Assembly: GCA_038045385.1 (NCBI GenBank)
Contig: JBBSYE010000001.1
Span: 42,165 to 106,164 of the forward strand
Source of the DNA: Nanobdellota archaeon
Lineage (GTDB): Archaea; Nanobdellota; Nanobdellia; Pacearchaeales; GW2011-AR1
Length of the DNA stretch: 64,000 bases
Direction of reading: 5' to 3'
Below are positions 12,116 to 59,124 of this stretch, piece by piece; positions within the stretch are counted from its first letter, which is position 1; every line of letters starts with the position of its first letter. The notes beneath the pieces were generated by a model. That model searched no databases. It had not been told where the DNA came from and worked only from the letters and a program-made list of their open reading frames with translations. The position numbers and the translations under genes were made by a program.

Positions 12116-12123
12116 TTATCAAA

Positions 12124-17796: not shown

Positions 17797-18494
17797 CTTA
17801 TTTTTTTGATTTCCTTCTTAATCCTCATGGCTTCTTTTTTTTCTTTTTCAGCTTTCTTCAGCTCAACTTTTTTCAACTCAGTCCTTAACTCTTTAAGTTT
17901 CTTTTCCATCTCTTTTATCTCAAATTCTTCCTCTTTAATATAACCTATCCGCTCCTTCTCCTTAATTTTTTCGGCATAAGCAAAAAACATCTTTAGTGGT
18001 ATCTTAATGATATTCAATACTATTGAAATAACTACAATTATGAATAACAATGCAACTACAACACCCAAGCCGACTCCAAGATTAGAATGTACAAATAGAA
18101 TAATTGCATAGGCAAAAAGATGTAAAGTCAATACGGAGCTCAAATGTTTTGCGAATTTTTCAGGCAGTATATGATTAAAATTAAACTTTAGTATTGCCCA
18201 TCCAATAAACAGCACAAAAATAGCCGCAATGCTCTTACCAGAATAAGTTATAAAATTATCAAAACCTCCAATTCCAATTCCATAAATATATCTAAATAAT
18301 CCAAGAGATACAAAAAACAGAACTAAAGAGTTAGATAAATAAGCCCCCCAATTTTCTCTTTCGTGCTTATATTTCTCGAAATAGCTTAATATAATAATGG
18401 TAGCAAAAAACAAAGGAACTATTTCCCATAATACCTCTGGAGTAAAGCTTAGTTTAATAAAATAAATAATCAAGGAAGTTATTTCGTTCACCAT
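17793..18494 (-). CDS. Membrane protein with K/E-rich coiled-coil tail
   Basis: 233 aa with about five TM helices, then EKERIGYIKEEEFEIKEMEKKLKELRTELKK. Confidence 0.4.
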   Translation of the reverse strand: MVNEITSLIIYFIKLSFTPEVLWEIVPLFFATIIILSYFEKYKHERENWGAYLSNSLVLFFVSLGLFRYIYGIGIGGFDNFITYSGKSIAAIFVLFIGWAILKFNFNHILPEKFAKHLSSVLTLHLFAYAIILFVHSNLGVGLGVVVALLFIIVVISIVLNIIKIPLKMFFAYAEKIKEKERIGYIKEEEFEIKEMEKKLKELRTELKKVELKKAEKEKKEAMRIKKEIKKIR

Positions 18495-18592
18495 CTTTCT
18501 TCAAAAAAGCTAGTAAGTTTATAAAACTTCTATTTCTCAATCTTCGCACAAAAATAAGTTAGCAAAATAAATAAAAGACACTTTCTTTAAAG

Positions 18593-20032
18593 CTAATCAT
18601 CAAAACTTTGGAATGAAGAGTTATAATTTATAACATCTTCCAATATAGAACCAGAATAGGATTTTTGTTTTTTCTTGAGGATATTGTTACTTCCAAATAA
18701 ATCATAGTACTCTCTATCATCATTCCGTAAAATATAGCTATTTCTATCATCATTCCGATTAGATAACTTTGAAAAAATACTATCATCTCCAGCTCTTGCT
18801 CTACCGACATCAAAAGTAAATGGCACTCCACTTTCTCTTAACAAAGTAAAAACTGCATCAAGTTTGCCTATGTCAATCTCGTTATTATATTTATCACCAG
18901 TAAAAGCATACCCTTCAATAATCCCTCTGATAAATTCTTCTCGTGCGCCCATAATACCAACTACCCTTGGCCCATCTTCGGTATTAATCAATCCTCTACT
19001 TATTTTGCCTCCGACAATAGCGCGAGAGCTTATAGGATTAAGATGTTTAATATTAGTAAGAAAATCATATTCTCGCCTTTGTTGTCTTCGTATTTCTCGT
19101 TTGCCAAGCTCAAAAGAATCGCATGAAGCATCAAAATCAACAATTCCAACTTTAAGTTTATTCGTTCCATTTGAGAGAACTATATTTCCCCAGTGAGCAT
19201 TACTCCCCGAAGAATCAGGACAGCTCCATGTTTGCCCACTTTTATCCATAAGTTTTTTAAGTCTTCCAGTAGTGTATCCAATATCATACATAAGTTCTTT
19301 TGTAGCTTGAATTAATTTTCTCCCAGTAGAAGTTTCTCCACCATAACAAAAGATAGGTTTTCCTGTTGTAATATCTTTTCTCATATCTCCTCGAAGTCCT
19401 CTAGTATAAAGGTGGTCTAAAAGAACAAGGACTTCATCTACTCTAGTATCTCCAACAACTTCCGAAAGCGTTGCAGTAGGTCTTACTTTGCGAGCCAAAA
19501 CAGGATATTCCCAGAGACCCTTAACTTTCATAGCAGGCTCAATACCATGCCATTCAAGAGTCTTAGCCCATTTATCTGACTGTTCTTTTTCATATTTCGC
19601 ATTATGCGCTTTCTGCCCGCCCGCAATAATCCACCCATCATCAGTGTTTACAATTTTTGGATTTTCAGGATTGAGAGCAACCCCCTTTAATCTAAATAGT
19701 CTATCTGTTTTAGAACAATATACTAAAGTTGAACGATACCCGCTCCATAAACCCGGGATTATTTGAGGCTCTATACCAAGCAATCCCCTAGTTATTCGAC
19801 TAATTGGACTTCCATCAAGTTCATCTGAAGTCAAATGTTTTTCAATTTCATCATAATCCCCCCGTTGCGCTATCATTAAGTCATCATTTTCAGACCTATC
19901 CTTAAAGTGTTCAACAAGTTCAGGACTTACAACTCTAGGAACTCTAAGACTTTTGGGCACATCACTATCAATTTGTGCGGTGCCTTCAGTTTTTACCAGA
20001 AGGTTAGTATCCCGTTTTACAAGCAATTTCAT
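18593..20032 (-). CDS. Hypothetical protein (479 aa) with C-terminal RNDDR repeats
   Basis: No confident family. Contains the degenerate kinase-like HWGNIVL...VDFDAS segment. A nucleotide tandem repeat (TCTATCATCATTCCG x2, about 18.68-18.76 kb) encodes RNDDR repeats. Confidence 0.4.
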   Translation of the reverse strand: MKLLVKRDTNLLVKTEGTAQIDSDVPKSLRVPRVVSPELVEHFKDRSENDDLMIAQRGDYDEIEKHLTSDELDGSPISRITRGLLGIEPQIIPGLWSGYRSTLVYCSKTDRLFRLKGVALNPENPKIVNTDDGWIIAGGQKAHNAKYEKEQSDKWAKTLEWHGIEPAMKVKGLWEYPVLARKVRPTATLSEVVGDTRVDEVLVLLDHLYTRGLRGDMRKDITTGKPIFCYGGETSTGRKLIQATKELMYDIGYTTGRLKKLMDKSGQTWSCPDSSGSNAHWGNIVLSNGTNKLKVGIVDFDASCDSFELGKREIRRQQRREYDFLTNIKHLNPISSRAIVGGKISRGLINTEDGPRVVGIMGAREEFIRGIIEGYAFTGDKYNNEIDIGKLDAVFTLLRESGVPFTFDVGRARAGDDSIFSKLSNRNDDRNSYILRNDDREYYDLFGSNNILKKKQKSYSGSILEDVINYNSSFQSFDD

Positions 20033-20162
20033 AAAATATCCCCTAGTTTGTAGTTTTTAAATCTTTTGTCATTTTTAAGTTATAACTATTTGTTATTAAT
20101 TCATAATCTACTTCTCAAAATCTCTAAATAAAAGTTTATAATCTCACTTTTTAGTAAATTTC

Positions 20163-20729
20163 ATGAGCAAAAGCAGAAAAATAAAATTAGAAGGAAAGAG
20201 AATCATACTTAGGGGTCTAAGGAGAGAGGACGCATCAGATTTAGTTGCTATTGCAAATGATTCTGAAATAGCAAAATATACGCCCATTCCCTTTCCCTTT
20301 TTACCAGAACACGCTAAAAAACTAATAGACGGAACAAGAGCGTCAATTAATAATGACAAAGCTTATTTTCTCGGAATTGAGTTTACAGAAAAGATTATCG
20401 GAATGGCTGGGTTGCAAAGAGTAGACAGAACGAAAAGAACGGCAGAAGCAGGCTATTGGATTGGCAAAGATTATAGAAATCAAGGTTTTGCAACAGAAGC
20501 TCTGGATTTGGTTTTAGATTTTGGTTTCATGACAGAAAATCTACAAAAAATATGGGGAAGAGTCACAGAGAACAATGCCCCATCAATAAAGATTTTAGAA
20601 AAAAGAGGTTTTTCTTTATCTGGCCGAGTGCCAAGCTCAAGAGAAATTGAAGGTTTATCTGTAGATGACAGGATATATGAATTAACTTCTCAGCAATACC
20701 TTGGGAGTTCTCAAAAACTCTGTTCTTGA
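20163..20729 (+). CDS. GNAT family N-acetyltransferase (RimJ/RimL-like)
   Basis: 188 aa with motif A region YRNQGFATEALDLVLDFGF. Confidence 0.8.
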   Translation: MSKSRKIKLEGKRIILRGLRREDASDLVAIANDSEIAKYTPIPFPFLPEHAKKLIDGTRASINNDKAYFLGIEFTEKIIGMAGLQRVDRTKRTAEAGYWIGKDYRNQGFATEALDLVLDFGFMTENLQKIWGRVTENNAPSIKILEKRGFSLSGRVPSSREIEGLSVDDRIYELTSQQYLGSSQKLCS

Positions 20730-20853
20730 CGTCAAAGTGAACACAGTTTTCTGTTCAATTATTTGTGTTTTCCACTATAGGATATTTTAATCCCAATTTG
20801 TAACTACTATAAAGAAACGATATCTTTATATACTCTGCTAAAAAAATGTTCAT

Positions 20854-21906
20854 ATGCAAAAAGCAATTAACTTATATTTAGAAGCTTCCGATGCTCCTGA
20901 AAATGTAATTAGCAAGTTTGAGAAGTTAGTTAGAACTCTACCAATCCTTCCAAAAGACCCATATGATGCAGTCATTGCAGTTTCTTCACATCTAAAAAAA
21001 GAAGGTTTTTGCTATGATTCTAACAATTTTACTGCCCAAGACGTTCTGAATAAAAGAGCAGGCAACTGCTTAGGCCTACCCCTCATTATCGGAGCAATAC
21101 TTGATAGCAGAGATGTGGCTTTTACACCAAGAGTTTTGATAAATCCCCAAGATATAATTTCTAAAGAAGAAAGAAAATTTGTTGAACGATATAATCAAGA
21201 GATAGCGTATGATAAACCAAATCTAGCAGATCCTCAAATTGAATCAAACTCTGACGAATCAATAGGCTACCGATTTGTGCCCCTTGAACACCTTGTTTTA
21301 GTAGCAGGAGGTAGAGCTTTTGAAACTACCTCAACTGAATCTGGAGAAGTTAAGGGTGGCGAGTCTGAAAGAAGTATTACATATGCTCAAGCAGTAAGTT
21401 TTGTTTTAAAAGATAGGGCTATTGAAAAAATTAATAATGGCGAAACGAAAGAATCTAAACAACTAGCCGAAAGAGGGCTACAAATGTGGCCAGAAAACAG
21501 AGAGCTTAATGGTCTTTGTGCAGATATAGAAAACATGCTTGGAAATTATTCTGTAAGGCAAGGTTTTTTGGAAAAATACAAAACTATTGGGGGAAATGAT
21601 TCTCTCTTTAACTACAAACTCTTTTTCTTAGAGAACAATCCCGCTTTTCTAGATAACGCTCTTGCGATATATCCAGAAAATGCTCTTGCAATAGTAGAGA
21701 AGGCGGCTTCTCTTGTTCAAACTGACTTAAGAGAGTCCAGATTCTTATTTGGTCTTGCGTCCCATTTATATGCAGAATCCTCTATTCTTAGTTTAAGAGA
21801 TTTTTATACAAGGCACGTTAAAGAACTTTCACAAGTTTTTGGGGCAGGCGAGATTAATGCTCGTTTAAGGAAATATCTAAACAATCAAACCAAAAGAACT
21901 AAATAG
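20854..21906 (+). CDS. Transglutaminase-like cysteine-protease-fold protein with C-terminal helical repeats
   Basis: RAGNCLGLPLIIGAIL resembles the transglutaminase-core G-N-C catalytic cysteine motif. The C-terminal half is TPR-like. Confidence 0.35.
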   Translation: MQKAINLYLEASDAPENVISKFEKLVRTLPILPKDPYDAVIAVSSHLKKEGFCYDSNNFTAQDVLNKRAGNCLGLPLIIGAILDSRDVAFTPRVLINPQDIISKEERKFVERYNQEIAYDKPNLADPQIESNSDESIGYRFVPLEHLVLVAGGRAFETTSTESGEVKGGESERSITYAQAVSFVLKDRAIEKINNGETKESKQLAERGLQMWPENRELNGLCADIENMLGNYSVRQGFLEKYKTIGGNDSLFNYKLFFLENNPAFLDNALAIYPENALAIVEKAASLVQTDLRESRFLFGLASHLYAESSILSLRDFYTRHVKELSQVFGAGEINARLRKYLNNQTKRTK

Positions 21907-28954: not shown

Positions 28955-29821
28955 CTATCTACAAGAGATTCTTCCGCCATCCAAATCATATTCCATCTTC
29001 AACCAATCAAAGTTTAATTCGTTTGCCTTGCTGCAAAATTCTGCTGGTTGTAACTCATATTCTACGCCAAAAACAGCCTTATCTTGTTCAATAAATGGCA
29101 AAAGAGTTTCGCACTCGTCATATTCAAAACATTGTTCATTTAAAGCAAAATCAAAATAATCAACTAATTCGGGAATTTGCTCTAAGTCATTTTTCAAACC
29201 AACTGTTAATCCTCTTTTATGAGATTCTTCTGCAAGCCATTTGTTATAAACCAATTGGTCTTGATAGGTTAAATCAAACCCATTATCGTTCAAATAACCG
29301 TCCACATTATCTGGCTCAACACCATCACAACCCTTTTCTACTGCTAAATCCAATCTGTTCCTCATAATCGGCGCAAGCAAGTCAATTTTGGAAATGTCAA
29401 GCCATTTCTCATCTTCCCATCCTTCAAGAGTTTTTCCCTGAACCTCATTTGGAAAATCATCTTTGTCAATTCTCCAGTTTTCATAACTTCCAGCACTAAA
29501 ATAGCAAATAACCTTTATACCTCTATTTTGCAACGCATTTATTACTTCTTTTGAATTATCAAATAAATCCAGATCATACATATCAACATCATGGTTCTGA
29601 TTTATTGTTCCCAGTAATTGCCATTGCCACGATGTATTTGGATTTGGTTTCCACCAAACGATGTTCTCTACGTCTTCATCAGTTTGCACTTCTCCTAGTT
29701 CTGATTCATTTGCTTCAACTGGTTCAGAGAGATCATCTTCTGCTATTTTTTTTGCAGTATAGCCACCAAGCAAAAGAATTCCTATAAACATTAGCACTAA
29801 CAACTCTTTTTTAATTTCCAT
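28955..29821 (-). CDS. Secreted glycoside hydrolase family 114-like (endo-alpha-1,4-polygalactosaminidase-like) protein
   Basis: Signal peptide, then the WQWQL motif, VICYFSAGSYENWR and VDGYLNDNG, consistent with the GH114 TIM-barrel. Confidence 0.6.
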   Translation of the reverse strand: MEIKKELLVLMFIGILLLGGYTAKKIAEDDLSEPVEANESELGEVQTDEDVENIVWWKPNPNTSWQWQLLGTINQNHDVDMYDLDLFDNSKEVINALQNRGIKVICYFSAGSYENWRIDKDDFPNEVQGKTLEGWEDEKWLDISKIDLLAPIMRNRLDLAVEKGCDGVEPDNVDGYLNDNGFDLTYQDQLVYNKWLAEESHKRGLTVGLKNDLEQIPELVDYFDFALNEQCFEYDECETLLPFIEQDKAVFGVEYELQPAEFCSKANELNFDWLKMEYDLDGGRISCR

Positions 29822-33784: not shown

Positions 33785-36037
33785 CTAACCAATAACCTCA
33801 CTGCATCCAAAGGAAAGAGAACAAGTAGTTATGTTAACTATTCCGTTCAAAGGCTGAACAATCCAATATCCTTTTGTTGAAACAGGATTTTGTGGATTCC
33901 AAATAATTCCTTCTGAAAAAGTTATTGTTCTGTCCACGCGAGAAAATCTAACTCCTTCACTATAATTTCCATCAACAGAATATCCTGCACTATCAAGAGG
34001 ACTAAATCTCCAGACTTTTCTCCCACCAGAAGCCATTCCAGTTAGAACATAATCATTACCCCAATGAGCCAGTTCTTTCCAAGATTTTCCAGCACCATAA
34101 GCATCTCCTGTTCTATCATTATCAAGCAAACTCTGTCTATCAGAAAAACCAGCAATCAAATTAAACTCAGCAAGAGTATTAGACAGCATATCGCGATCTT
34201 CATCAATTCTTAGCAAATCCGCTTCAGGAGTTATCATAGCCCCCCCATTACAAATTGAAGAAGGTGCCCAAAATATAAAATCATCCGCACCAGCTAAAGC
34301 AGAATGTAAAACACTCTCCTGCCAATAGTCAGTATTAGCCATAGCCACTAGAGGACCACCCAAATCGCACTCCTCATTTGTACCTCCTTCCCAGCTTTTT
34401 CTTGCAATCCACGGAATTACCTTGTCTTCGTCATTGAGGACAGAAGCACGCATTTGATTAACACTATATCTGAAAGAGTTAAAACTAGTAGAAGGATAAT
34501 TTATTCCATCAGGCCCATTACCAGCTAATGTAATTTGCCCCAACCAACCATAAAGATTAGGCGATTGTCTATTTCCTATATGAATATCATCTTGGGGATT
34601 AAGACCAGGCGCACTAATAGTAGCAATACCATTTCCATTTAAGTCTTCAAGTGGAACATCTCCCGAGCCAGCAACAATAGTATCCCAATTATTCGCACTA
34701 CCATAGCTTGCATATTTTATATTCGGAAATAAGTTTTGCGAAGTATTTAAAAAGGAAATATTAAAATAATCGCGCCTATGTATTTCAGTTACCATATTCC
34801 ATATTCTATAGGCATAGCCCACTCTATTATCCACATTATCAACAAGATATTGCCCATTTTGCATCTCCACATTTACAAGATATTCTGGAAAACCCATGCT
34901 TGCCCTAATAGCCTCATATCCGGAGTCTGCACCAATTGCCCTCCAGCGTGCTTCTTGATTAGAGAGATTTATTTGACTATCTATTTGCCAGTTACTAAAC
35001 CCTGATTCTATATCTGTTAATAGTATATCAAGTTCGCCCTCTTCACCACTTCCTTGATTTTTATACAGACGCATTAACTCCTCCACAAATAAAGCAGTTT
35101 CATCAGCCCCATTATCCCACCAGATAAGATTAGCTGTGCTTTCTATTCCTGAAACACCATCATCTTGAATTTCCTCTTCACTAAAACTAATTCTATCATC
35201 AATGTTTCTTGTAAGTAAACTAGACTGGTCATCCCTAGTAAGAATTATCATGGCTTTTTTACCATTCGGTTGTCCCATCAAGAAATTTCTTGCAATATCA
35301 ACTTGGCTTAAATCACCTCCAGCTGGGCCATTTCCTTGGTAATGATAAATATGCGAAATAAATGGCTCATTCACAGGACCTATTGTCCATGCTAATGCGA
35401 AAAGATTATTTCTCGCAGGATCCTGTTCATTAGCATCATCCTCGCTAGAACATCCAGGGTCAAAAGGCCAATCTATCAAACCATCTCCATCATTCCCACT
35501 ATTTGCAGAAGAAGAGTCAGAATTATCAGAACAAGCAGCTTGATTTATTATCGGAGCAGTTTCATCAACATCACCATTTGAGCAAACAACAGGACTACCA
35601 ATTAGGGAACAAGCAGAAACTCCAATAATTCCAGCGACGTCAACATTAAATGATTGAGCAACATCAACATCAGAAATCTGATAAACTTTAGTTTCAAATG
35701 TTTCAGGAAAAAAAGTTGTTGAGAATGTCTCAATTCCATTAGGAGTATTAAATACCAACCTAACTCCATCAAGAGAACCTTCAGGCAATCCTCTACGAAC
35801 TTGAACAGAAGTTAGTCCCCTTGTAACGTCGGTAATGCAAGAAATAATCTGAAGATTTGCATTTATACAACTAGTTGCTCTATCAATTCCCACCGAACTT
35901 CCAGAGCCATCATCAGAAGAATCACCAAGAGAGAAAATCACATGCTTCACTCCAACCCATAAAATCCCAGCAGATATAACAACAAGCAATATAATAAGCA
36001 CAGAAGTAACTATGCCTGACAAACCCCCTTTTAACAT
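33785..36037 (-). CDS. Large secreted/surface protein (750 aa) with class III (prepilin-like) signal peptide; paralog A
   Basis: N-terminus MLKGGLSGIVTSVLIILLVVISAGILWV. Long blocks are conserved with the 36081..38177 gene (RLVFNTPNGI, GVSACSLIGSPVVCS, DIESGFSNW, GSGDVPL...ISAPGL...GNRQSPNLYGWLGQIT...GPDGINYP...FNSFRYSVNQMRA, WQESVLHSALAGADDFIFWAP). Confidence 0.7.
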   Translation of the reverse strand: MLKGGLSGIVTSVLIILLVVISAGILWVGVKHVIFSLGDSSDDGSGSSVGIDRATSCINANLQIISCITDVTRGLTSVQVRRGLPEGSLDGVRLVFNTPNGIETFSTTFFPETFETKVYQISDVDVAQSFNVDVAGIIGVSACSLIGSPVVCSNGDVDETAPIINQAACSDNSDSSSANSGNDGDGLIDWPFDPGCSSEDDANEQDPARNNLFALAWTIGPVNEPFISHIYHYQGNGPAGGDLSQVDIARNFLMGQPNGKKAMIILTRDDQSSLLTRNIDDRISFSEEEIQDDGVSGIESTANLIWWDNGADETALFVEELMRLYKNQGSGEEGELDILLTDIESGFSNWQIDSQINLSNQEARWRAIGADSGYEAIRASMGFPEYLVNVEMQNGQYLVDNVDNRVGYAYRIWNMVTEIHRRDYFNISFLNTSQNLFPNIKYASYGSANNWDTIVAGSGDVPLEDLNGNGIATISAPGLNPQDDIHIGNRQSPNLYGWLGQITLAGNGPDGINYPSTSFNSFRYSVNQMRASVLNDEDKVIPWIARKSWEGGTNEECDLGGPLVAMANTDYWQESVLHSALAGADDFIFWAPSSICNGGAMITPEADLLRIDEDRDMLSNTLAEFNLIAGFSDRQSLLDNDRTGDAYGAGKSWKELAHWGNDYVLTGMASGGRKVWRFSPLDSAGYSVDGNYSEGVRFSRVDRTITFSEGIIWNPQNPVSTKGYWIVQPLNGIVNITTCSLSFGCSEVIG

Positions 36038-36072
36038 TTCAAAATATGGAAAACATCATTAAAAAACTCTTC
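36028..36072. repeat. Duplicated promoter/5' region (copy 1), ~45 nt identical to 38168..38212
   Basis: On the gene strand this reads GAAGAGTTTTTTAATGATGTTTTCCATATTTTGAA|ATG. The TATA-like TTTTTTAATGA lies about 29 nt before the ATG, suggesting a leaderless transcript. The plus strand carries ATGGAAAACATCATTAAAAAACTCTTC, a copy of the dus 5' end. Confidence 0.6.
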
Positions 36073-36080
36073 TACTATCT

Positions 36081-38177
36081 TTAATTTGCAGATGGCTCTC
36101 GTGCATCAGACGCCTGCACTATCCATTTTCCACAACTTGAAACTGAACTGGCAGGAGTGTAAACTCGCGCCTGCTCAAAAATAATGTTCTTCGTCGCACT
36201 CTTGCATGAAACTTGATTGTTCGCAATATTTGTGCAATCAACATTAGAACAAGAAGAACCAGACAAAGAAACTTCAGGAGCAAATCTCCAGACTTTTCTT
36301 CCTCCAGACAACATCCCAGTCAAAACAAAATCTTCTCCCCAAGGAGCAAGTTCCTTCCAGGGCTTTCCAGAGCCGTAATAATCTCCAGTTCCGTCGTTAT
36401 CAAGTAAACTCCTTTTATCTGAAAATCCGGCGATTGTGTTAAATTCAGCGAGAGTACCTGATAATTTTTCTTGATCACTATCAAGCCCCGCAGGGTTAGG
36501 ATTTTGTGGTGCCCAAAATATAAAATCATCCGCACCAGCTAAAGCAGAATGTAAAACACTCTCCTGCCAGAAATCACTATTGACCATCCCTATTTGAGGC
36601 CCTCCAGAATCTCCAGGAAAACTTCGTCTTGCAATCCATGGAGTGACTTTGTCATCATCGTTCAAAACTGTCGCTCGCATTTGATTAACACTATATCTAA
36701 ATGAATTAAAAGCACTATTTGGATAATTTATTCCATCAGGCCCTCTTCCTGACCAAGTAATCTGTCCAAGCCATCCGTACAAGTTAGGTCCTTGTCTATT
36801 TCCAGCATGAAAAATATCTCCGCTCCCAAGTCCAGGCGCACTGATAGTCACAGTACCATGACTATTAATATCAATTAAAGGTACATCTCCTGAGCCAGAA
36901 ACAATTACGTCAAAATTATTCGCACTTTCATAATTTCCAAATTTTGCACCCTCAAAATTATTTTCCAAAGGTTCATAAAATGCCTTGTTGATATAATCTC
37001 TCTTTCTTTTTTCATTAACCAGATTCCAAATCTTATAATTATTTCCACTCTGCCAATTATGTACACTCGTTAAATCAGTAAAACCAATGTCGCTCTTTAT
37101 CTGAGCTATTCCCAGACCATTAACATCGTCGCTGATAGTTTTCCATTTAGCTTTCTGTGCTTCATCAGAAAAGCCCGAGCCAATATGCCAGTTGCTAAAC
37201 CCTGACTCTATATCAACAATCAAAAAGTCCAGTTCTCCTCCTTTTGATTTATATTTGCTAAGAAAATCATCTACTATAATTTTAGTATTTGTCGCCCCAT
37301 TATCCCACCAAATACAATTTGCAACCCCCCATTGTGTAGGGCAAATTGGATATCCGTCTGTTGAGTTTCCAGTCAACTTAAGCCAATCTATTGCAAGATT
37401 AAATATTATCATTGCTCTATGTCCTTCTGGTTGCTCGTCGAGAATACTTTTTGCCTCATTAGCTATAGAGTCTGCAGAATTTGCAGAATTATAACTGCTA
37501 TAAATTTTGCTTAGATAGGGTCTTTCTTCAGAGTTTGGATTGGACCACATAAGTGCGTAAATCTCTCCCTTTGATTTATCTTCATTCTCATCTTCATCAT
37601 CCGCGCTCACACAACCAGAGTCAGCGGGCCAATCGATAAGCCCATCGCTATCATTATCAATATCATCAGAACAAATCCCTTCAGTTTCATTAACTACTCG
37701 TTCTTCCACAACATCACCAGAACAAATCACAGGACTACCAATTAGGGAACAAGCAGAAACTCCAATAACTACAGAAATATCAACATTAGAAGCTCTAGAA
37801 ATTGCCTCATCCTCAATTCTATACACAATAGATGCAGAATAATTGGGGGCGACATTACTTGAATAGGTTTTTATTCCTTCAGGAGTATTAAATACCAACC
37901 TAACTCCTCCAATAGCCCCGCCGAAATCAACCCTTCGGACATTTACATAACTTATATTATCTATGTAATTTGTAAAGCAAGAATTTATTTGAAAACTTAC
38001 ATTAGCACAAACGATGTTGCTTTCCAAAACATCTTCTTCTTCTTCAACCACTCCAATATTATTATTAAGAGAACTAATTATTGGCTTAATACCAAACCAA
38101 AAGACGCCAAAACCCATAGCCAAAACGAGAATAAAAATAGTAAATATAACAACTCCAGAAATTCCTCTTTTTAACAT
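36081..38177 (-). CDS. Large secreted/surface protein (698 aa) with class III (prepilin-like) signal peptide; paralog B
   Basis: N-terminus MLKRGISGVVIFTIFILVLAMGFGVFWF (KRG then a hydrophobic segment). Tandem paralog of the 33785..36037 gene. Confidence 0.7.
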   Translation of the reverse strand: MLKRGISGVVIFTIFILVLAMGFGVFWFGIKPIISSLNNNIGVVEEEEDVLESNIVCANVSFQINSCFTNYIDNISYVNVRRVDFGGAIGGVRLVFNTPEGIKTYSSNVAPNYSASIVYRIEDEAISRASNVDISVVIGVSACSLIGSPVICSGDVVEERVVNETEGICSDDIDNDSDGLIDWPADSGCVSADDEDENEDKSKGEIYALMWSNPNSEERPYLSKIYSSYNSANSADSIANEAKSILDEQPEGHRAMIIFNLAIDWLKLTGNSTDGYPICPTQWGVANCIWWDNGATNTKIIVDDFLSKYKSKGGELDFLIVDIESGFSNWHIGSGFSDEAQKAKWKTISDDVNGLGIAQIKSDIGFTDLTSVHNWQSGNNYKIWNLVNEKRKRDYINKAFYEPLENNFEGAKFGNYESANNFDVIVSGSGDVPLIDINSHGTVTISAPGLGSGDIFHAGNRQGPNLYGWLGQITWSGRGPDGINYPNSAFNSFRYSVNQMRATVLNDDDKVTPWIARRSFPGDSGGPQIGMVNSDFWQESVLHSALAGADDFIFWAPQNPNPAGLDSDQEKLSGTLAEFNTIAGFSDKRSLLDNDGTGDYYGSGKPWKELAPWGEDFVLTGMLSGGRKVWRFAPEVSLSGSSCSNVDCTNIANNQVSCKSATKNIIFEQARVYTPASSVSSCGKWIVQASDAREPSAN

Positions 38178-38212
38178 TTTAAAATATGGAAAACATCATT
38201 AAAAAACTCTTC
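38168..38212. repeat. Duplicated promoter/5' region (copy 2), overlapping the dus start codon
   Basis: Identical to 36028..36072 apart from one mismatch. Confidence 0.6.
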
Positions 38213-39178
38213 GTAAAAAGTTATAAACATCTTATTTCTCTAAAGTGGATGACTCTACATATAGGAAAAATAAAACTCTCCAGTCCTTTACTCCTAGCGC
38301 CAATGGTAGACGTCACAGATATAGCTTATCGTATTCTATGTAGAAAATATGGCGCATCGTTGGCGTATACTGAAATGCTCAATATTGGGGCAATTTTGCA
38401 TGAAAACGAAAAGACAAAGCGCATGCTAATAACTTCAAGCGAAGACCGCCCACTAGGGATTCAAATTACCGCACCCAAAGTAGATGATTTCAAAAAAGTA
38501 ATTCCCTATATAAAAGAATACGATTTAGTAGACATAAATTGCGGTTGTCCATCAATAAGAATTACAGACAATGCATCAGGAAGTTATCTACTAAAAACTC
38601 CATTAAAAATCGCCAGTTATATCAAAGTTCTAAAATCCTCTGGCTATTCAGTGACCGCAAAAATCCGTCTAGGCTATAAGAAAAATAATGTGTTAAAAAT
38701 TGCAAAGATAATAGAAAAAGCTGGCGCAGATGCAATAACAATCCACGCTCGTCTTTCTCATGAAAGCTACAAAACTCCGGCAGATTGGCTTTGGATAAAA
38801 GAAGTCAAGAAAGCATTAAAAATTCCAGTAATCGGAAATGGCGACGTTAATTCAGGGGAATCAGCAAAAAAAATGCTTGAATGTGCAGACGCAGTCATGA
38901 TAGCACGTGCAGCGATAGGCAATCCCCTAATTTTCCGCAATATATTGCATTATCTTAAAACCGGTCAAGAGCTGCAAACAACAAAACACGAACGACTAAA
39001 TTCATTCTTAGAATATTTACAACTTGCAGAAAAGCACAAAGTCATCGAGCTACCACGAATAAAATCTCTCGGCGGTTATTTCTTATCTGACTTTCCAAAT
39101 TCCTCTAAAGCAAGAGCAAGCTTTATGCAATTAAAAACCCTAGATGAAATGAAAAAATTTATTAAAAAATTAATTTAA
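38186..39178 (+). CDS. dus: tRNA-dihydrouridine synthase
   Basis: 330 aa with LAPMVDVTDIAYRILCRKYGASLAYTEM and a FMN-binding TIM-barrel. Confidence 0.85.
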   Translation: MENIIKKLFVKSYKHLISLKWMTLHIGKIKLSSPLLLAPMVDVTDIAYRILCRKYGASLAYTEMLNIGAILHENEKTKRMLITSSEDRPLGIQITAPKVDDFKKVIPYIKEYDLVDINCGCPSIRITDNASGSYLLKTPLKIASYIKVLKSSGYSVTAKIRLGYKKNNVLKIAKIIEKAGADAITIHARLSHESYKTPADWLWIKEVKKALKIPVIGNGDVNSGESAKKMLECADAVMIARAAIGNPLIFRNILHYLKTGQELQTTKHERLNSFLEYLQLAEKHKVIELPRIKSLGGYFLSDFPNSSKARASFMQLKTLDEMKKFIKKLI

Positions 39179-39282: not shown

Positions 39283-40554
39283 CTATCTTCTTCCTCTATC
39301 GTGTCGCCATCTTGGCTTGTAATCTCCACTACCCCGACTCTCTTGCTGTCCTCTATCTCTATATCTTCCCCCTCCGCGTCCACCAAAGCCTCCTCTTCCT
39401 TCTCTATCTCCTCTGTCATCAAACCTAATCATGATACTCTCGAACTCAGGCAATTCAACTTTATCAATTTTCAGCTCGTCATCCAGAAGTATACGTCGGA
39501 AATTATCATAGTCTCTCTCTGAAACAACATTGACAGCAATTCCATCCTTCCCAGCCCTAGCAGTTCTCCCAATTCTGTGGACATATTCCTTAGGATTTTT
39601 TGGAATATCATAATTGTAAACATGAGAAACATTCTTTATATCAAGCCCTCTAGCAGCCACGTCAGTGCAAACCAAAATAACTGCCTGCCCAGATTTGAAT
39701 TTTTCCATAATTCTATTTCTTTTATTTTGTGTCAATCCGCCATGTAGGGCCATTGCGTCAATCTGCATCTTATAAAGATTCTTAGCTACGAAATCCGCAT
39801 TTCTTCTCGTATTACAAAACACCATCACAAGTCCAGCTCTCTCTTGCTTAAGCAAATGGACAAGCAAAGAAAACTTTCCCTGTTTAGGCACATCATAATA
39901 AACTTGCGTCAATTTAGAAGCATCAACATAAGATTCAACTGAAACGTCAACAGCATCACGCAAGTATTTCCTAGAGAGGTGCTTAACATCTTGACTTAGA
40001 GTAGCAGAAAATAGCAAAGTCTGCCTTTCCTTAGGACAATTCTTAATTATAGTTTCAACATCCTCAATGAACCCCATGTCCAACATTCTATCTGCCTCAT
40101 CTAAAATTAAGACTTTTACGTGTTTCAAATCTATAGTTCCTCTCTGGAGATGGTCAAGCAATCTTCCAGGAGTTCCAACAACAACATCAGCATATCTCAA
40201 ATCTCTCATCTGTGGCTTTATATCAACACCCCCGTAAATAGTCGCAATATTCAACTTCTTATAACGAGCATATTTTTTAAGAGATTGAGCAACTTGTTCA
40301 GCCAACTCGCGTGTCGGCGCCATAATTAAAGCCTGAATTTTTTCAGTATGAGCAATTCTATCAACAATAGCCGCACCAAAAGCAAGCGTCTTTCCAGAAC
40401 CTGTAGCCGCACTACCCACGACATCGCGCCCAGCAACGACATAAGGAATCGCTTTCTCTTGAATTTCACTCGGTTCAGTGTACTTACTATCTTGAATCGC
40501 TCGCAGAAGGTCTCCGCTTATTCCTAACTTCTTGAATTTTTCCATTTTACTCAA
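39283..40554 (-). CDS. DEAD-box ATP-dependent RNA helicase with RGG/RGD-rich C-terminal tail
   Basis: Q-motif, AATGSGKTLAF, DEAD, SAT, HRIGRTAR. C-terminus GDREGRGGFGGRGGGRYRDRGQQESRGSGDYKPRWRHDRGRR. Confidence 0.9.
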   Translation of the reverse strand: MSKMEKFKKLGISGDLLRAIQDSKYTEPSEIQEKAIPYVVAGRDVVGSAATGSGKTLAFGAAIVDRIAHTEKIQALIMAPTRELAEQVAQSLKKYARYKKLNIATIYGGVDIKPQMRDLRYADVVVGTPGRLLDHLQRGTIDLKHVKVLILDEADRMLDMGFIEDVETIIKNCPKERQTLLFSATLSQDVKHLSRKYLRDAVDVSVESYVDASKLTQVYYDVPKQGKFSLLVHLLKQERAGLVMVFCNTRRNADFVAKNLYKMQIDAMALHGGLTQNKRNRIMEKFKSGQAVILVCTDVAARGLDIKNVSHVYNYDIPKNPKEYVHRIGRTARAGKDGIAVNVVSERDYDNFRRILLDDELKIDKVELPEFESIMIRFDDRGDREGRGGFGGRGGGRYRDRGQQESRGSGDYKPRWRHDRGRR

Positions 40555-44519: not shown

Positions 44520-44852
44520 TTATTGCTCTTCGTTTGAACTTTCAGAGCTTTCTTCGTTGTCTTCGTTTCTTGGCGTAATTCCTTTCTTCTTCATGAAGCA
44601 ACTCTTGCATAATACAGGAGTGCCTTCACGAGGTTTGAATGGAACTTCTCCTTCGTTTCCACATTCAGAGCAGGTTATCTTGTGCATTGTGCGAGGTCCA
44701 AAATCTCTTCTGAATCCTCCTCCACCGCCTCCTCCGCGTCCGCCGAATCCACCGCCGCCACGTCTGAAGCCACCGCCTCCTCCGCCACGTCGATCTCCTC
44801 CGCCTCCGCGTCCGAAACCGCCTCTGTCTCCGCCGTCTCTATCAAATGCCAT
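44520..44852 (-). CDS. RGG-box / zinc-ribbon protein (putative RNA-binding)
   Basis: 110 aa. N-terminus GGDRGGFGRGGGGDRRGGGGGGFRRGGGGFGGRGGGGGGGFRR, then a C-x2-C-x17-C-x2-C zinc ribbon (CSECGNEGEVPFKPREGTPVLCKSC), then an acidic Ser-rich tail. Confidence 0.6.
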   Translation of the reverse strand: MAFDRDGGDRGGFGRGGGGDRRGGGGGGFRRGGGGFGGRGGGGGGGFRRDFGPRTMHKITCSECGNEGEVPFKPREGTPVLCKSCFMKKKGITPRNEDNEESSESSNEEQ

Positions 44853-52382: not shown

Positions 52383-53948
52383 TTACATATAAAACATATA
52401 ATGCGTTTGAAGTGGAACGTTCCTATCTGCTTCGGATAAAATCTCTCCTACTTTCTTTGAAAATGCCAAAGTTATAGGCATTTCTGTACAAAACGCAGTA
52501 GTATTCCAATTTAATTTAGTTAAACCTAATATCTCTTCACAAATCTCTTTTATTTCTGAATCTCCATCATGATTAATTAAAACTGGTTGAGGAATACTAT
52601 TTCCTGGATAAGTTCTTAATCTTGGGATATACCCTATAGTGTACAATAGATGCTCTCCTTTATCCAGATTGATAAGCGTACCTCTTAACACAGGGTAGGA
52701 TCCTTTTCTCATAAATCTAATCCCCTTCCTTTTAGACAATGTAACGTAATCTCTTTTTGCAGTACCTATCGCTTTAGAGAATCCATTTTTTTCAGCTTTG
52801 GTAAATAAAGTAGATTTATGGACAACAACTCTCACTGGATCTCTTCCGGCCCTATTCTTATATCTTTCAATGGATTGAACTAATAACTCCTCCGCCTGTT
52901 TCTCAGATAAATGGGGTTCTTTGGTTTCTTCATCGACATAAACTTCAGTTCCTCTTAAAACCAACCCTTGTCCATCATGTGTAAAAACTTGAGCCATGGA
53001 AGTCTGAATATCCTGATTTGATGTTAATTTATCTCTATAAAAAGAAATTCCAACATAACAAGTATCGTCTCTAAGTTTTGCTAGCCTCCAAGGTTTTCCG
53101 TTTGCCTTGTAAAATAAAGCTGTAGAAAAATTCCAAGCAAAGGAAGATGGGTCCTGTTTTCTTTTACCAGCAGGATCATAATTTAGTATAACGTCTATAG
53201 TAGATTCTCTTAAGATTTGTATAGGCTTTGTTGGACTGATGCTCATCACTTTTCCTTTTAAAGCATTTCTAAAATCATAACCTTTTGGAATTTGCTGACT
53301 AGGAGATTTCATAGTTACACCCCACTCAGTTAGAAACATTTGGCTTTTCTTCTTTAGGTCATCTATCTTTTTCCCCAATTCAGACGTCTTGACTATTTTA
53401 GCTCCTCTCGTTCTAAGAGATATCCCGCAATATTCCTCTATCTCTTTCGGTAGACAGCAGATAATAACTTCCGGAGGATTATCATCCGCCATTATGTTTT
53501 TTATCTTAGACAGATATAATTCTACTGCTGAACCTATTCTTTCATTTACATCTATAATGTTTTTTATTTTTTCAATTTCATATTGTTGAACGGTCTCTTG
53601 CCAATTCTTAGCAATGTCAATAGAACAATTAAACTTTGTATCTTTAGACATGCCTGGATAAGGAGGATATAGCCACTTATTTGATTCTTTGTTTTCAATT
53701 GGTTTTTTTATCAGGTCAAGTATTTTTTTAACCTTCTCTATGGTGTTACTGTCTCCGATTATGCCTACAGAGACTTTGCTTAAAGAAACGCTTTCTGTTT
53801 CGTATCTATAGGGGCCATGGTATTTTAGTCCTAGTCGAGGGTCTTTTTCTTCCTTAAAGTCTCCAAAGACAAGATTACTCTCGTTTAGAAATTCTGAATC
53901 AAAAATCATTTTCTTCCTCCATGTGTTCGATTTCTTCACTATCTTCAA
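52383..53948 (-). CDS. Short prokaryotic Argonaute-like protein (MID-PIWI, predicted catalytically inactive)
   Basis: 521 aa. The block ALFYKANGKPWRLAKL..TCYVGISFYRDK matches the Ago KxGGxxW to GxDVxH segment, with the catalytic Asp replaced by Ser. VRVVVHKSTLF matches the RDG block, with RDG replaced by HKS. HLLYTIGYIPRLRTYPGNSIPQPVLINHD matches the PIWI C-terminal ...R.TRSVSIPAPAYYAH motif. Confidence 0.6.
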   Translation of the reverse strand: MKIVKKSNTWRKKMIFDSEFLNESNLVFGDFKEEKDPRLGLKYHGPYRYETESVSLSKVSVGIIGDSNTIEKVKKILDLIKKPIENKESNKWLYPPYPGMSKDTKFNCSIDIAKNWQETVQQYEIEKIKNIIDVNERIGSAVELYLSKIKNIMADDNPPEVIICCLPKEIEEYCGISLRTRGAKIVKTSELGKKIDDLKKKSQMFLTEWGVTMKSPSQQIPKGYDFRNALKGKVMSISPTKPIQILRESTIDVILNYDPAGKRKQDPSSFAWNFSTALFYKANGKPWRLAKLRDDTCYVGISFYRDKLTSNQDIQTSMAQVFTHDGQGLVLRGTEVYVDEETKEPHLSEKQAEELLVQSIERYKNRAGRDPVRVVVHKSTLFTKAEKNGFSKAIGTAKRDYVTLSKRKGIRFMRKGSYPVLRGTLINLDKGEHLLYTIGYIPRLRTYPGNSIPQPVLINHDGDSEIKEICEEILGLTKLNWNTTAFCTEMPITLAFSKKVGEILSEADRNVPLQTHYMFYM

Positions 53949-55353
53949 TTTCTAATCTAAACTCTGAAGATGGAATATCAAAAAGGATTCCTTTTGAAAC
54001 TTTAGTAGACGAAGGTTTCGAACTTATTTCTAAATAGTCTTGTACTTTGATATTTTCTCCCTCACCAAGTTGGTGTATCCAAAATAAAAGAGTATTAAGA
54101 TACATACTGTTGTATCTATTATAGGAAAGACGAGTTATTACTGCTCCCTCCTCCGGCCCAGAAACAACTCTTTTTCCATCATCAGTTATAACAAAAGTTG
54201 GGTTTATTTTAAGAAATAATCTCTTATTCAATATAATTGTACTCGCTTGAAAAGCCATATGACAATAAATATATCTTTTCAGTTGCTCAGCCCACATTCT
54301 ACTCGCCACTTGCCTATCTGATCGAACATATCTCCCAGCCCAACTTTCTTTTCTTTTTTCAGAATTAGATGGATAATAAAGTTTGTAGCCATCACGATGA
54401 TAATATAAACCTCTATTTATTGCTAAAAAAGTTATTTCTTTGTTAAGTAGTTCAATAATAATCTTTGATTTCTCTGGATCATCTAGCCAAGATTCAACTA
54501 GTTCTCTCGAAGCCGAGCTTGTAACTAATCCCGAATAAGGATTTTTACTATCTTGTAGATTCTCAAAAGTAACTATTTTTTTATTCCAACTTTTAAACTT
54601 TTTATAGAAGTCTGGTCTTATACTTCTCTCATACAAGTATTGTTTAATTGAGACATCATCTTCAAACTTACCCTCTCCTAGAAAAACGTATTTAGGTAAT
54701 TTTATAATCTCAAATAAATTACTAAAAATTTCTTCTTCTACATCATCAGGTTCTCCGCTCAAGACAGAAGTTTGATAATCAGTCTTTTCTATTCTCTTCT
54801 TAATTATTTCAATTTCGTAAGAAGTTGGATGTATGCTTTGAGTTCCCCTCCTATAAAATAATTCTCCTTTCTTGAATACTGATTTTGGTTTCCCATCTTT
54901 GTCATATTCACCATCTTTCTTTGGAACAAGCAGAGAACGAGAAGGCGGTATGTAAATATAAGCAAACCTCTTAGGAATGTTTCCTATCTCAATAATTTCT
55001 TCATGATAAAGTATCTCTAAAGGCTCATCAACATATGAATTGAATTTTTCTTGAAGAGTTGCTTGATCTACCTTATAATCTTCTCGGAGGCCTACAGGGA
55101 TAGGTTTTCGTTTTTCATCTTTCCAACCTATTAAAATCCAACCACCTCCATAATTACTGAAAGCTAGTATATCTTTTACTATCTCGGGAAAGTCAGATCC
55201 TTTTGAAACATCTATTACCAGCTTATAGTCAAGGTAAGGATTTTCAGATTTTTCTTTAAGATAATCTAATGCGTATTGCCCAAGTGGCGAAGACTCAACA
55301 TTGTCTATAACCACTTTCATTACAGGTTTTAAATTTACCTCTTGTTTTTCCAT
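53899..55353 (-). CDS. AlbA_2 (Schlafen-core-like) domain protein, putative pAgo-associated effector/partner
   Basis: 484 aa. N-terminus YLDYKLVIDVSKGSDFPEIVKDILAFSNYGGGWILIGWKDE matches the AlbA_2/Schlafen-box consensus (ExK...AFANT.GG.I.IGV.D). The gene overlaps the PIWI gene by 50 nt. Confidence 0.6.
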   Translation of the reverse strand: MEKQEVNLKPVMKVVIDNVESSPLGQYALDYLKEKSENPYLDYKLVIDVSKGSDFPEIVKDILAFSNYGGGWILIGWKDEKRKPIPVGLREDYKVDQATLQEKFNSYVDEPLEILYHEEIIEIGNIPKRFAYIYIPPSRSLLVPKKDGEYDKDGKPKSVFKKGELFYRRGTQSIHPTSYEIEIIKKRIEKTDYQTSVLSGEPDDVEEEIFSNLFEIIKLPKYVFLGEGKFEDDVSIKQYLYERSIRPDFYKKFKSWNKKIVTFENLQDSKNPYSGLVTSSASRELVESWLDDPEKSKIIIELLNKEITFLAINRGLYYHRDGYKLYYPSNSEKRKESWAGRYVRSDRQVASRMWAEQLKRYIYCHMAFQASTIILNKRLFLKINPTFVITDDGKRVVSGPEEGAVITRLSYNRYNSMYLNTLLFWIHQLGEGENIKVQDYLEISSKPSSTKVSKGILFDIPSSEFRLEIEDSEEIEHMEEENDF

Positions 55354-57304: not shown

Positions 57305-57362
57305 ACTAGACTTTAGAGATTGTCTACTTTCTTAAGTTATTCTATCACTAATATTAAATCTC

Positions 57363-57638
57363 TTAATAATTGAACACAACTTGACTTTTTGAGAAAATAA
57401 CCCTGCTTCTTACCTTTACTTCTTTTCCGACTTTTGTCTTTGATATGAGGCCTAAATTTTCAAGCATCTTAACATAATCGGCCACTTTAGTGTAGGCTAG
57501 ATTCAGGTTAGACGCTAGCTCAGTAATACTGAGATCCTTATGTTGGGTGAGTTCAAGGACAGCGAATCGCATCATGTTTGACATGGCTTTTATTCTATCA
57601 TACACTTGAGGGTTCTTTAGGGTTGTTGAGGTTGTCAT
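57363..57638 (-). CDS. ArsR/winged-HTH family transcriptional regulator
   Basis: 91 aa. FAVLELTQHKDLSITELASNLNLAYTKVADYVKMLENLGLI is a wHTH motif. It is the first gene of the helicase-AlbA_2-PIWI operon. Confidence 0.6.
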   Translation of the reverse strand: MTTSTTLKNPQVYDRIKAMSNMMRFAVLELTQHKDLSITELASNLNLAYTKVADYVKMLENLGLISKTKVGKEVKVRSRVIFSKSQVVFNY

Positions 57639-57703
57639 TACACCAAATTTAGGGTAATTTTATATATTAACATAGTTCACCAAAAATGGTGTAATGTTCT
57701 CAC

Positions 57704-59124
57704 ATGGAAACCTCTACCATCCTCTATCCTCAAATTTACGATTATGATAACCTTATTTTAGCCTGGCAAAACGCCAAAAGAGGAAAGACAAAGCGAAGAT
57801 ATGTAAAACGATTTCAAAGAGACCTTAGAGAAAACTTGATTAAATTACAGGAAGAGCTTACTCATCAGACCTATCAACCGTGTGAACTAAAAACATTCAC
57901 GTTAAGAGACCCTAAAACAAGGAAAATATCAAAATCAGCCTTTAGAGATAGAGTTGTTCATCATGCGCTTTGTAATATTATCGTTTATACCTTTCAGAAG
58001 GGATTCATCTATGACTCGCACGCAAATCAAATAGGGAAAGGAACGCTCAAAGCTTTAGAGCGATTTGATGTTTTCAAAAGAAAGGTATCTAAGAACAATA
58101 CAAGAGAGGCTTATGTGTTAAAAGCAGATATTAAGCACTATTTTGAAGAAATTGACCATCAAATCCTTATAGGAATATTACGGAAGAAGATTAAAGATGA
58201 AAAAATTATCTGGCTCATAGAAAGAATCTTGTCAGTTAACCATAGGATAAAGGGCATGCCTTTGGGAAATTTAACAAGTCAGTTCTTTGCGAACCTATAT
58301 CTTAACGAATTAGATGTTTTTGTCAAGCACAAATTAAAGGCTAAATACTACATAAGATATGTGGATGATTTTGTTATTTTGCATGAATCAAAGGAGCAAC
58401 TAGGTAAGTGGAAGCAAGAGATTAATACTTTTTTAGATGAACGTTTGAAAATAGAACTACATCCAAGCAAATCAAATGTTTTAAGACTGAATAGTGGTAT
58501 AAACTTCTTAGGTTTCAGAGTTTTTTCTATCATAAACTTATAAGAAAAAGCAATTTAAGGAATTTTGAACGGAAATTCAATAATCTCAAAATATTATTTG
58601 ATGAAGAACTAATCGGGAGAGAAAAAGTACTAGAAGCCTTAGAAGGATGGCTCGCTTATTGTTCTCACGCAAATACGTACAAGTACCGAAAGTATCTCAT
58701 TAGAAACTTCAATACATCGTTTTCTCATGGAAACAAGCTCTTAGTTCACAATAAAAAGAATTATGCCAATTACATTAAGAGAGTTAAAGAAAGTGAATTA
58801 CAATTTTCAGTTCAAAAGACATTATTTCATTATAAGAAAGGTCTCAGAATAAAAGAAATCTCGGTCAAAGAAGGAATAAAAGAAGCAACAGTCTGGGGAC
58901 ATTTGGCTAATTTAATAGAACATAAACAACTTTCAGTGTGGGAAATTCTTCCACATAATAAAATCCATGCAATTATAAGAAAAATATATCGTAGAAAAGA
59001 AAGATTGCGAGATATCAAAAAGAGATTGCATGATAAATCAATAACATACGATGAAATTGCATGCGTGATGGCTAATATTAAATCAAAAAAGAAGTGGAAG
59101 AATAAGAGTCCTGGAAACAAGTGA
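57704..59124 (+). pseudogene. Group II intron-like reverse transcriptase/maturase, interrupted by a frameshift in a T6 run (~58523..58528)
   Basis: RT motifs 0-7 are present (NLILAWQNAKRGK; PKTRKISKSAFRDRVVHHAL; SHANQIGKG; YVLKADIKHYFEEIDH; MPLGNLTSQFFANLYL; RYVDDFVIL; LHPSKS; INFLGFRV). With T6 to T7 the frame continues ...FRVFFYHKLIRKSNL...EALEGWLAYCSHAN... (maturase X-like) to a stop at 59122..59124, about 472 aa. As sequenced the RT ORF stops at 58543. Confidence 0.65.

Follow-up and report, generated by a model that had tools for sequence, protein, structure and literature searches.

Two neighbouring minus-strand genes in a 64,000-nt stretch of a Nanobdellota archaeon contig (JBBSYE010000001.1, positions 42,165 to 106,164; the whole stretch is referred to here as the window) each encode a protein that joins an archaeal pilin-like N-terminal module (N-module) to a large C-terminal domain (C-domain) resembling glycoside hydrolases (GHs). 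Gene 1 (AABW79_00510, 36081..38177, 698 aa) and gene 2 (AABW79_00505, 33785..36037, 750 aa) are separated by 43 nt. The reading that we favour, and consider moderately probable, is that both gene products are exported, have the modular build of an archaeal type-IV-pilin-like protein and carry an enzyme as their cargo. Both proteins have the same four-part architecture: a class III signal followed by a hydrophobic helix, an Ig/FN3-like beta-sandwich, an acidic linker with disulfides and a DxDxDG motif, and a C-domain of ~500 aa. Cargo proteins with class III signals and modular pilins are already known kinds of protein, and the TIM-barrel glycosidase fold is common. What is new is that, in a DPANN archaeon, an archaeal pilin module is combined with an acidic disulfide linker and a glycosidase-like cargo, and that this cargo belongs to a large family lacking both a name and a solved structure.

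Both proteins are identical to “hypothetical proteins” of a Nanoarchaeota metagenome-assembled genome (MAG), gene 1 being an exact match to P0001, and the source contig of 145 kb derives from the 0.1-um fraction of Hainich groundwater. An earlier note on this DNA, made from the letters alone, had described a tandem pair of “giant” proteins with prepilin-type (class III) N-termini, and the open reading frames (ORFs), the motif and the helix were all confirmed. The conserved blocks that it quoted (DIESGFSNW, GSGDVPL, GNRQxPNLYGWLGQIT and WQESVLHSALAGADDFIFWAP) were each found in both proteins. Some details required correction: the “ISG” said to follow the leader is present in gene 1 (MLKRGISGVV...), while gene 2 has LSG (MLKGGLSGIV...); a length of ~700 aa is large by pilin standards, yet not “giant”; and the end of the feature, placed at 38212, lies 35 nt upstream of the gene 1 start codon (38177), at a promoter-like element.

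Evidence for a pilin-like N-module came from motif, profile and structural comparisons. In gene 1, a putative class III leader, MLKRG (38163..38177, minus strand, as are all features of the pair), with a predicted cleavage site after G5, precedes a hydrophobic helix resembling pilin alpha-1 (aa 6-38, 38064..38162), which is supported by hydropathy, an AlphaFold2 (AF2) model and hhalign comparison with pilins of the window. An Ig/FN3-like beta-sandwich with two conserved Cys pairs follows (aa 57-153, 37719..38009). The equivalent module of gene 2 (aa 1-160, 35558..36037) consists of an MLKGG leader, helix and beta-sandwich, and matches TIGR02537 on residues 5-30 (E 0.028). In both proteins the leader runs directly into a hydrophobic stretch (ISGVVIFTIFILVLAMGFGVFWF in gene 1, LSGIVTSVLIILLVVISAGILWV in gene 2) that forms a 23-residue helix at residues ~6-28; this is the sole strong hydrophobic segment of each protein, with Kyte-Doolittle values >2 for averaging windows that start at residues 1-17. 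When the 76 ORFs of >=100 aa in the window were searched with a class III-type regular expression (basic leader, Gly, [ILV][SA], hydrophobic run), five matched, namely gene 1, gene 2 and three pilins supported by the Pfam family Pilin_N (PF07790; 2550..3062, 3088..3546 and 3577..4095).

Among 15 homologous N-modules, K3 and G5 are nearly invariant. TIGR02537 matches nine of the 15 at E<=1 (best 1.4e-5), the UpsA and BasA/BasC models give weak matches, and Pilin_N matches one (E 0.28). Alignment of the N-modules (A4) with the window pilins (A5) by hhalign gave a probability of 95.9% (E 6.3e-9, 86 columns), and this profile-profile match runs into the globular domain, while pairwise BLAST alignments between the same sequences are limited to the leader and helix. 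These data, with the AF2 model of an N-terminal helix followed by a beta-sandwich, agree with the earlier assignment of the N-termini to the archaeal class III or type IV pilin kind, and indicate that the N-module is related, at the profile level, to the Pilin_N pilins of the same contig. The two groups share a KRG-[VIL]S leader and a helix, and the predicted helix-plus-sandwich architecture may be common to both. They differ in that the Pilin_N pilins are stand-alone proteins of 150-170 aa encoded in a pilus operon, whereas the gene pair is four to five times longer and lies 30 kb away; moreover, the cleavage site is followed by SG in the gene pair and by SP in the Pilin_N pilins.

The ~100-residue sandwich and its conserved Cys pairs are kept in 15 homologs, and the N-module is re-used with other cargo (P0127, P0131). 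A Pfam search of the cargo of other N-module proteins (P0127, P0131, P0042 and P0048) gave nothing. The linker of gene 1 is an acidic double-disulfide repeat, CSDDIDNDSDGLIDWPADSGC, with a DxDxDG motif (37605..37685; NF033662, E 0.0035), and NF033662 also matches 15 of 57 members of the C-domain family (best E 2.6e-21).

These observations bear on the possibility that the two genes encode housekeeping intracellular enzymes, or are mis-annotated ORFs, with a pilin likeness arising by chance. A conserved housekeeping gene neighbourhood, described below, fits such a reading. However, the N-terminal motif, the helix and the Cys-paired sandwich are conserved in homologs; the multiple conserved Cys pairs and the disulfide repeat point to a location outside the cytoplasm; members of the family consistently have export signals and extracellular domains; and the ORFs are long and conserved, with nominal ratios of nonsynonymous to synonymous divergence (dN/dS) <1. 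Assignment of the mature domains to a housekeeping enzyme, which the earlier note had named as the result that would speak against it, was also looked for, and neither protein matches any housekeeping family. This explanation was rejected on the conserved motif, the export signals and the Cys pairs, and we regard it as very improbable.

The C-domain (aa 200-698 of gene 1, 36084..37580; aa 206-750 of gene 2, 33788..35422) is modelled as a (beta/alpha)8 barrel followed by a C-terminal beta-sandwich. It has no sequence match in Pfam, NCBIfam or the PDB, even when 57 family members or their profile are used, in keeping with the earlier statement that no family could be named, and no glycoside hydrolase family of Pfam matches more than one of the 57 at E<=1. 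The family is nonetheless large: an exhaustive HMMER search at E<=1e-3 found 902 cluster representatives, and 284 remain at E<=1e-10. A word-indexed homolog search found just 2-6 proteins, so that the full family is visible only by exhaustive HMMER; a profile scan of genome contigs (alignment A7) found one Woesearchaeota locus. One member comes from a Balneolales bacterium, and all source names observed are “hypothetical protein”. Family members carry archaeal pilin-type, Sec or lipoprotein signals, type IX secretion system (T9SS) tails, or PG_binding_1 or PKD domains; most are exported by the Sec, lipoprotein or T9SS routes, and the domains that co-occur with the C-domain (T9SS tail, PG_binding_1, PKD) are of extracellular kinds only.

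The suggestion that the mature domain might be enzymatic gained support from its predicted structure and from its conserved residues. The AF2 model is a confident TIM barrel with a (beta/alpha)8 fold, and the nearest solved folds are all glycoside hydrolases. The closest are clan GH-A-type folds, the GH42 beta-galactosidase (1kwk) and the GH164 beta-mannosidase (6t5o), at 7-8% identity. Unlike GH42 and GH164, the C-domain has no Pfam or PDB sequence match, no conserved Glu at the end of predicted strand beta-7, and D-x-E instead of N-E. This D-x-E motif (D322-I323-E324 in gene 1, codons 37206..37214) follows directly after predicted strand beta-4, with E324 three residues past the strand at 318-321 as placed in the predicted model. 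It is present in both paralogs. GH18 chitinases and GH56 hyaluronidases likewise have D-x-E on beta-4 and use substrate-assisted catalysis; in the C-domain family, D322 is conserved in 96% and E324 in 100% of the 57 members. The acid/base Glu of clan GH-A and the D-x-E of GH18 and GH56 both occupy a beta-4 position that we take to be equivalent to D322-I-E324. Neither the Glyco_hydro_18 nor the Glyco_hydro_56 model matches any of the 57 members at E<=1, and the full GH18 signature, DxxDxDxE, is absent, the spacing here being D317-x4-D322-x-E324.

Four alignment columns are invariant across the 57 sequences (E324, R631, G683 and W685), and a further set is conserved in 89-98% (D322, D317, D351, D274, Q462, Y467, N498, E539, H543, W290, W514 and W555). 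Gene 1 and gene 2 both retain every one of these residues, W514 and W555 included; D322, D351, E539, H543, Y467 and Q462 are each at 93-98%. As judged from the alignment, the conservation of E324 and these six residues is an active-site pattern under purifying selection. Since the putative active-site residues are kept in both paralogs, the C-domain can be read as probably an active glycosidase of a new family, a reading that draws on the structural model. The 95%-conserved Arg353 of a “DPR” motif is lost in both window copies, as are several other conserved positions, and the specificity of the pair may therefore be derived.

The same residues are relevant to a second explanation, in which the C-domain is not catalytic and the TIM barrel acts as a lectin-like scaffold that, displayed on a pilus, binds host surface glycans. 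Catalytically dead TIM-barrel lectins exist in GH18-like families. Consistent with a purely adhesive role, there is no conserved Glu at the position of the GH-A nucleophile, and Arg353 and other conserved positions are missing from both copies. Binding modules are, moreover, the commonest cargo of known modular pilins in the excerpted account of these proteins (PMC8179133). On the other hand, the Glu after beta-4 is invariant in 57 divergent archaeal and bacterial members, other active-site-like residues are kept, and the T9SS-secreted or lipoprotein members from bacteria resemble ordinary secreted enzymes. A purely adhesive role is less likely because the Glu is invariant, and we consider it improbable.

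Candidate assembly machinery for a pilin-like protein is encoded on the same contig, ~30 kb from the gene pair. A type IV pilus-like cluster (454..4600, minus strand; Pfam T2SSE and Pilin_N) includes a T2SSE ATPase (454..1977) and five pilin-like genes (2015..4600), and two T2SSF platform genes lie just left of the window (L003). Given these pilin, ATPase and platform genes, a prepilin peptidase is presumably encoded somewhere in the genome. A few kb past the platform genes, L003 also encodes two PKD-domain proteins of 924 aa and >860 aa (17863..21524), which are candidates for further surface proteins.

The surroundings of the gene pair are of a different kind. Its neighbours in the window are Dus, a PC4-like ORF, IF-2 and a DEAD helicase. 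Both in the window and in four contigs of relatives (L007, L008, L013 and L017), the gene is divergent from Dus and lies near genes for the DEAD helicase, CysRS, IF-2, S6e and eIF2-gamma. The syntenic proteins of these four contigs are just 28-33% identical to those of the window; the retention of the same position in such divergent relatives indicates vertical inheritance in the lineage rather than a mobile island. The expectation that the family would be found near pilus genes was not borne out, with a housekeeping neighbourhood in its place in the window and in the contexts of five homologs.

This arrangement is one of several observations that favour the main rival explanation, in which the proteins are membrane-anchored ectoenzymes that never enter a filament, and the pilin-like N-terminus, cleaved or uncleaved, serves as an export signal and anchor. 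Such an enzyme would act at the cell's own surface, scavenging sugars from environmental polysaccharide or remodelling the cell's own envelope or exopolysaccharide (EPS). In each of five contigs the gene sits within the housekeeping neighbourhood (Dus, DEAD helicase, IF-2, CysRS), and in none does it adjoin pilus genes. The MAG also encodes, next to the RNA polymerase operon, a third paralog (P0152, 597 aa) that has a plain transmembrane (TM) anchor and no pilin sandwich, and most members of the family are exported by the Sec, lipoprotein or T9SS routes. A bacterial C-domain homolog adjoins an EPS biosynthesis cluster (two contigs), a weak hint at polysaccharide processing, and the window encodes another TM-anchored polysaccharide hydrolase. 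Substrates of the Sulfolobales bindosome are also encoded apart from their machinery (bioRxiv 10.64898/2026.04.22.720090), a further parallel. Against a simple anchor, the Cys-paired sandwich of ~100 residues is kept in 15 homologs and re-used in P0127 and P0131, which is the pattern of a carrier (pilin) module, and complete pilus machinery is present on the same contig. The ectoenzyme explanation is thus a serious possibility, although we judge it clearly less probable than display by a modular pilin.

The other polysaccharide hydrolase is a TM-anchored GH114 enzyme (endo-alpha-1,4-polygalactosaminidase family; 28955..29821, minus strand; Pfam E 3e-88), the second exported enzyme of this type in the window. 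Kinship between it and the C-domain family was considered and discarded, since hhalign shows none.

A number of observations weigh against the modular pilin reading as a whole. With respect to the N-module, the helix supplies much of the hhalign score against the window pilins, and neither window protein reaches the curated cut-offs of Pilin_N or TIGR02537: Pfam gives no match to either, and with TIGR02537 the 750-aa protein scores 14 bits where the cut-off is 20, while the 698-aa protein has no match at all. In the AF2 model, the sandwich matches generic FN3/Ig folds rather than pilins specifically, and a low-confidence linker of 15 residues separates helix from sandwich, unlike in compact pilins. 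With respect to the machinery, no class III signal peptidase or Peptidase_A24 was found in ~84 kb (the 64-kb window and 10 kb on each side, covered through ten membrane ORFs of the window and precomputed Pfam hits for the flanks), and pilus genes are adjacent in none of the six contexts (the window and five homologs). With respect to the cargo, the likeness to glycoside hydrolase folds is distant (identity <=10%, Foldseek template modelling scores 0.25-0.44). Clan GH-A enzymes place their nucleophile at the end of beta-7; no conserved carboxylate follows predicted beta-7 here (P-W-I-A, 513-516), so that the classical nucleophile is not evident, and the nearest carboxylate, E539 (98%), is at the start of the next helix.

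Gene 1 and gene 2 share 46% identity from end to end (BLASTP, 584 bits), and neither scores above 389 bits against any other homolog; L007 has a tandem pair of its own (P0004, P0009). Because the window proteins are reciprocal best matches and the L007 pair is separate, gene 1 and gene 2 are considered in-paralogs, and duplication at this locus appears to be recurrent. The earlier note had also proposed that the internal sequences diverge through diversifying evolution. In NG86 comparisons of the two genes, nominal dN/dS is <1 in every folded region, the exception being an unalignable 18-aa linker; however, dS by region is 0.76-2.0 or incalculable, and this saturation means that diversification cannot be assessed from the gene pair and is neither supported nor rejected.

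In contrast to the adjacent coding DNA, whose synonymous divergence is saturated at a dS of ~1, a 35-nt element ahead of each copy (GAAGAGTTTTTTAATGATGTTTTCCATATTTT(A/G)AA) is identical at 34 of 35 nt. The gene 1 copy, GAAGAGTTTTTTAATGATGTTTTCCATATTTTAAA (38178..38212), contains a box resembling a transcription factor B recognition element (BRE) and TATA box ~32 nt before the ATG; the second copy lies upstream of gene 2 (36038..36072). The exact 19-mer core occurs at these two sites only in the window, with 0.16 sites expected at <=3 mismatches. The near-identity of the elements means either that the promoter and initial transcribed region are strongly constrained or that gene conversion, limited to ~46 nt, took place recently. 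A related box, GAAG(A/C)(G/C)TTTTTTAA(T/G)G, is found 29-32 nt before the start codon of the K-R-G proteins in L007 (both genes) and L008, a spacing that fits a BRE/TATA promoter and leaderless transcripts. The start codons of P0003 (L008 7186) and P0009 (L007 6398) are misplaced in the public gene calls; once the starts are corrected (MIKKRGMSALIV... 18 nt upstream; MQKRGVSG... at Met8), both the class III motif and the shared TATA-to-ATG spacing reappear. From these elements, the two gene copies are expected to be independently transcribed. Both are probably active.

The promoter element of gene 1 also overlaps the annotated Dus ORF (38186..39178, plus strand), which at 330 aa exceeds the orthologs of L007, L008, L013 and L017 (290-315 aa) by ~15-40 aa. 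Its codons 1-9 (MENIIKKLF) are the reverse complement of the element, and the duplicate copy of the element gives the same reading; the true Dus start is probably M22.

The closest known parallels to the gene pair are the modular pilins of bacteria. In Streptococcus sanguinis, the modular type IV pilins PilB and PilC carry a vWA module and a lectin module, respectively, and bacterial modular pilins comprise >1,200 InterPro proteins in 264 architectures, with predicted peptidases (S74, M26) among the cargo, according to the excerpted survey (PMC8179133). As in the proteins described there, a small pilin module (class III signal, helix and globular domain) is joined by a short linker to a bulky module that is not pilus-specific, and one carrier module is combined with varied cargo (here P0127 and P0131). 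In contrast to the bacterial proteins, which have the IPR012902 N-methylation motif, the module here is of archaeal type (KRG-[IL]S..., TIGR02537/Pilin_N-like). The bacterial prepilin N-methylation motif (G, then F/M-T-L-x-E after the cleavage site) is absent, since the corresponding sequence is KRG followed by ISG, with no Glu5, and only archaeal models match. The host is also different, being a DPANN archaeon, and a glycoside-hydrolase-like barrel of ~500 aa is not among the cargo listed in the excerpted survey (PMC8179133). The best-supported reading, by analogy, is that the gene pair represents an archaeal counterpart of the bacterial “modular pilin”, an analogue rather than a member.

Parallels also exist with the substrates of the Sulfolobales bindosome, which are archaeal non-pilin cargo proteins with an N-terminus on the pilin blueprint that is cleaved (bioRxiv 10.64898/2026.04.22.720090). 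In both cases, non-pilin cargo lies behind an archaeal class III-signal N-terminus. One difference is that the bindosome cargo is a solute-binding protein tied to an ABC transporter, whereas the gene pair carries an enzyme-like TIM barrel and has no transporter in its vicinity. Another is that the cargo of the gene pair is preceded by an entire predicted Ig-like pilin sandwich and by the acidic disulfide linker.

The modular pilin reading leads to a model for the function of the two proteins. A class III signal peptidase would remove MLK(R/G)G at the cytoplasmic face of the membrane, and the N-terminal helix would keep the mature protein in the membrane. From there, the ATPase, two platform proteins and five pilins of the pilus cluster 30 kb away could draw the protein into a filament, where it would be a minor or tip subunit, with the linker holding the barrel outward. 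The enzyme is probably displayed on the cell surface or on pili. There, the barrel would hydrolyse a glycosidic bond of a polysaccharide that is either extracellular or part of the cell envelope. E324 would serve as general acid/base; its partner could be D322, acting via an acetamido group of the substrate as in GH18 and GH56, or one of the conserved carboxylates E539 and D351. The two copies arose by tandem duplication. A more specific proposal is that the proteins, as minor or tip pilins in a DPANN type IV pilus, are glycosidases of a new GH family that cut a glycan of the host cell wall or S-layer, allowing pili to penetrate the host envelope or lock on to it. Any such role in host contact is speculative, and we consider it rather unlikely in this specific form.

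Several other features of the window and its flanks were noted. At 52383..55353 (minus strand), a short prokaryotic Argonaute gene (pAgo; PADLOC pAgo class I, E 2e-153) overlaps an upstream partner gene, whose product has an SLFN_AlbA_2 N-domain as well as an Aga “REase-PNTD” (APAZ-like) region; the two resemble a short-pAgo pair for defence, here in a DPANN archaeon. Beyond it are a UvrD/GajB-like helicase (55403..57304, minus strand), a reverse transcriptase (RT; 57704..58543, plus strand) and an Rfam RT-16 RNA (59217..59354, minus strand, 70 bits), and the interval 55403..59354 is a possible RT-associated module, either for defence or of a retroelement. The Res (ResIII, PADLOC REase_III E 3e-93) and Mod genes of type III restriction-modification occupy 60811..63512 (minus strand) and, in the right flank (L005), 8430..12277; a 141-aa ORF (63087..63512) matches the C-terminal part of the Mod model only, and a 523-aa N6_N4_Mtase gene lies just past the right end of the window. 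Also in the right flank (L005 1479..7494), small ORFs separate a Cas1 gene from a nearby family-B DNA polymerase (PF03175), a casposon-like arrangement. A secreted protein of 280 aa (8046..8888, minus strand) ends in a dockerin-type I-like repeat that falls narrowly short of the Pfam cut-off (E 1.8e-4). An SRP RNA (5007..5236, minus strand) was called as “Bacteria_large_SRP” at the gathering score (60.3 vs 60) in this archaeal genome, and a tRNA match of 131 nt (11145..11275, plus strand) presumably contains an intron. The DEAD-box helicase near the gene pair (39283..40554) has an RGG-rich tail, and a protein of 110 aa (44520..44852, minus strand) has a long Gly/Arg-rich (RGG-like) N-terminal half and a C-terminal Cys motif (CSECG...CKSC).

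For the attachment of DPANN archaea to their hosts and the extraction of host resources, there are very few surface effector candidates with a predicted activity. The gene pair provides a testable candidate, in which an enzyme-like domain appears to be placed on the pilin export pathway and is syntenic across divergent relatives. Cryo-transmission electron microscopy of groundwater has shown that the pili of ultrasmall cells extend into host cells (PMC7906910). If the proposal of a pilus-borne glycosidase acting on host glycans is true, it would explain how these pili extend into host cells, the recurrent tandem duplications at the locus would track host range, and the cargo would found a new glycoside hydrolase family as its first archaeal example. 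The C-domain itself represents a widespread family of secreted TIM-barrel proteins with no Pfam or NCBIfam name and no solved relative, and is a candidate for a new GH family on the strength of D322 and E324. The “modular pilin” concept would, in turn, extend from bacteria to archaea, with an enzymatic cargo.

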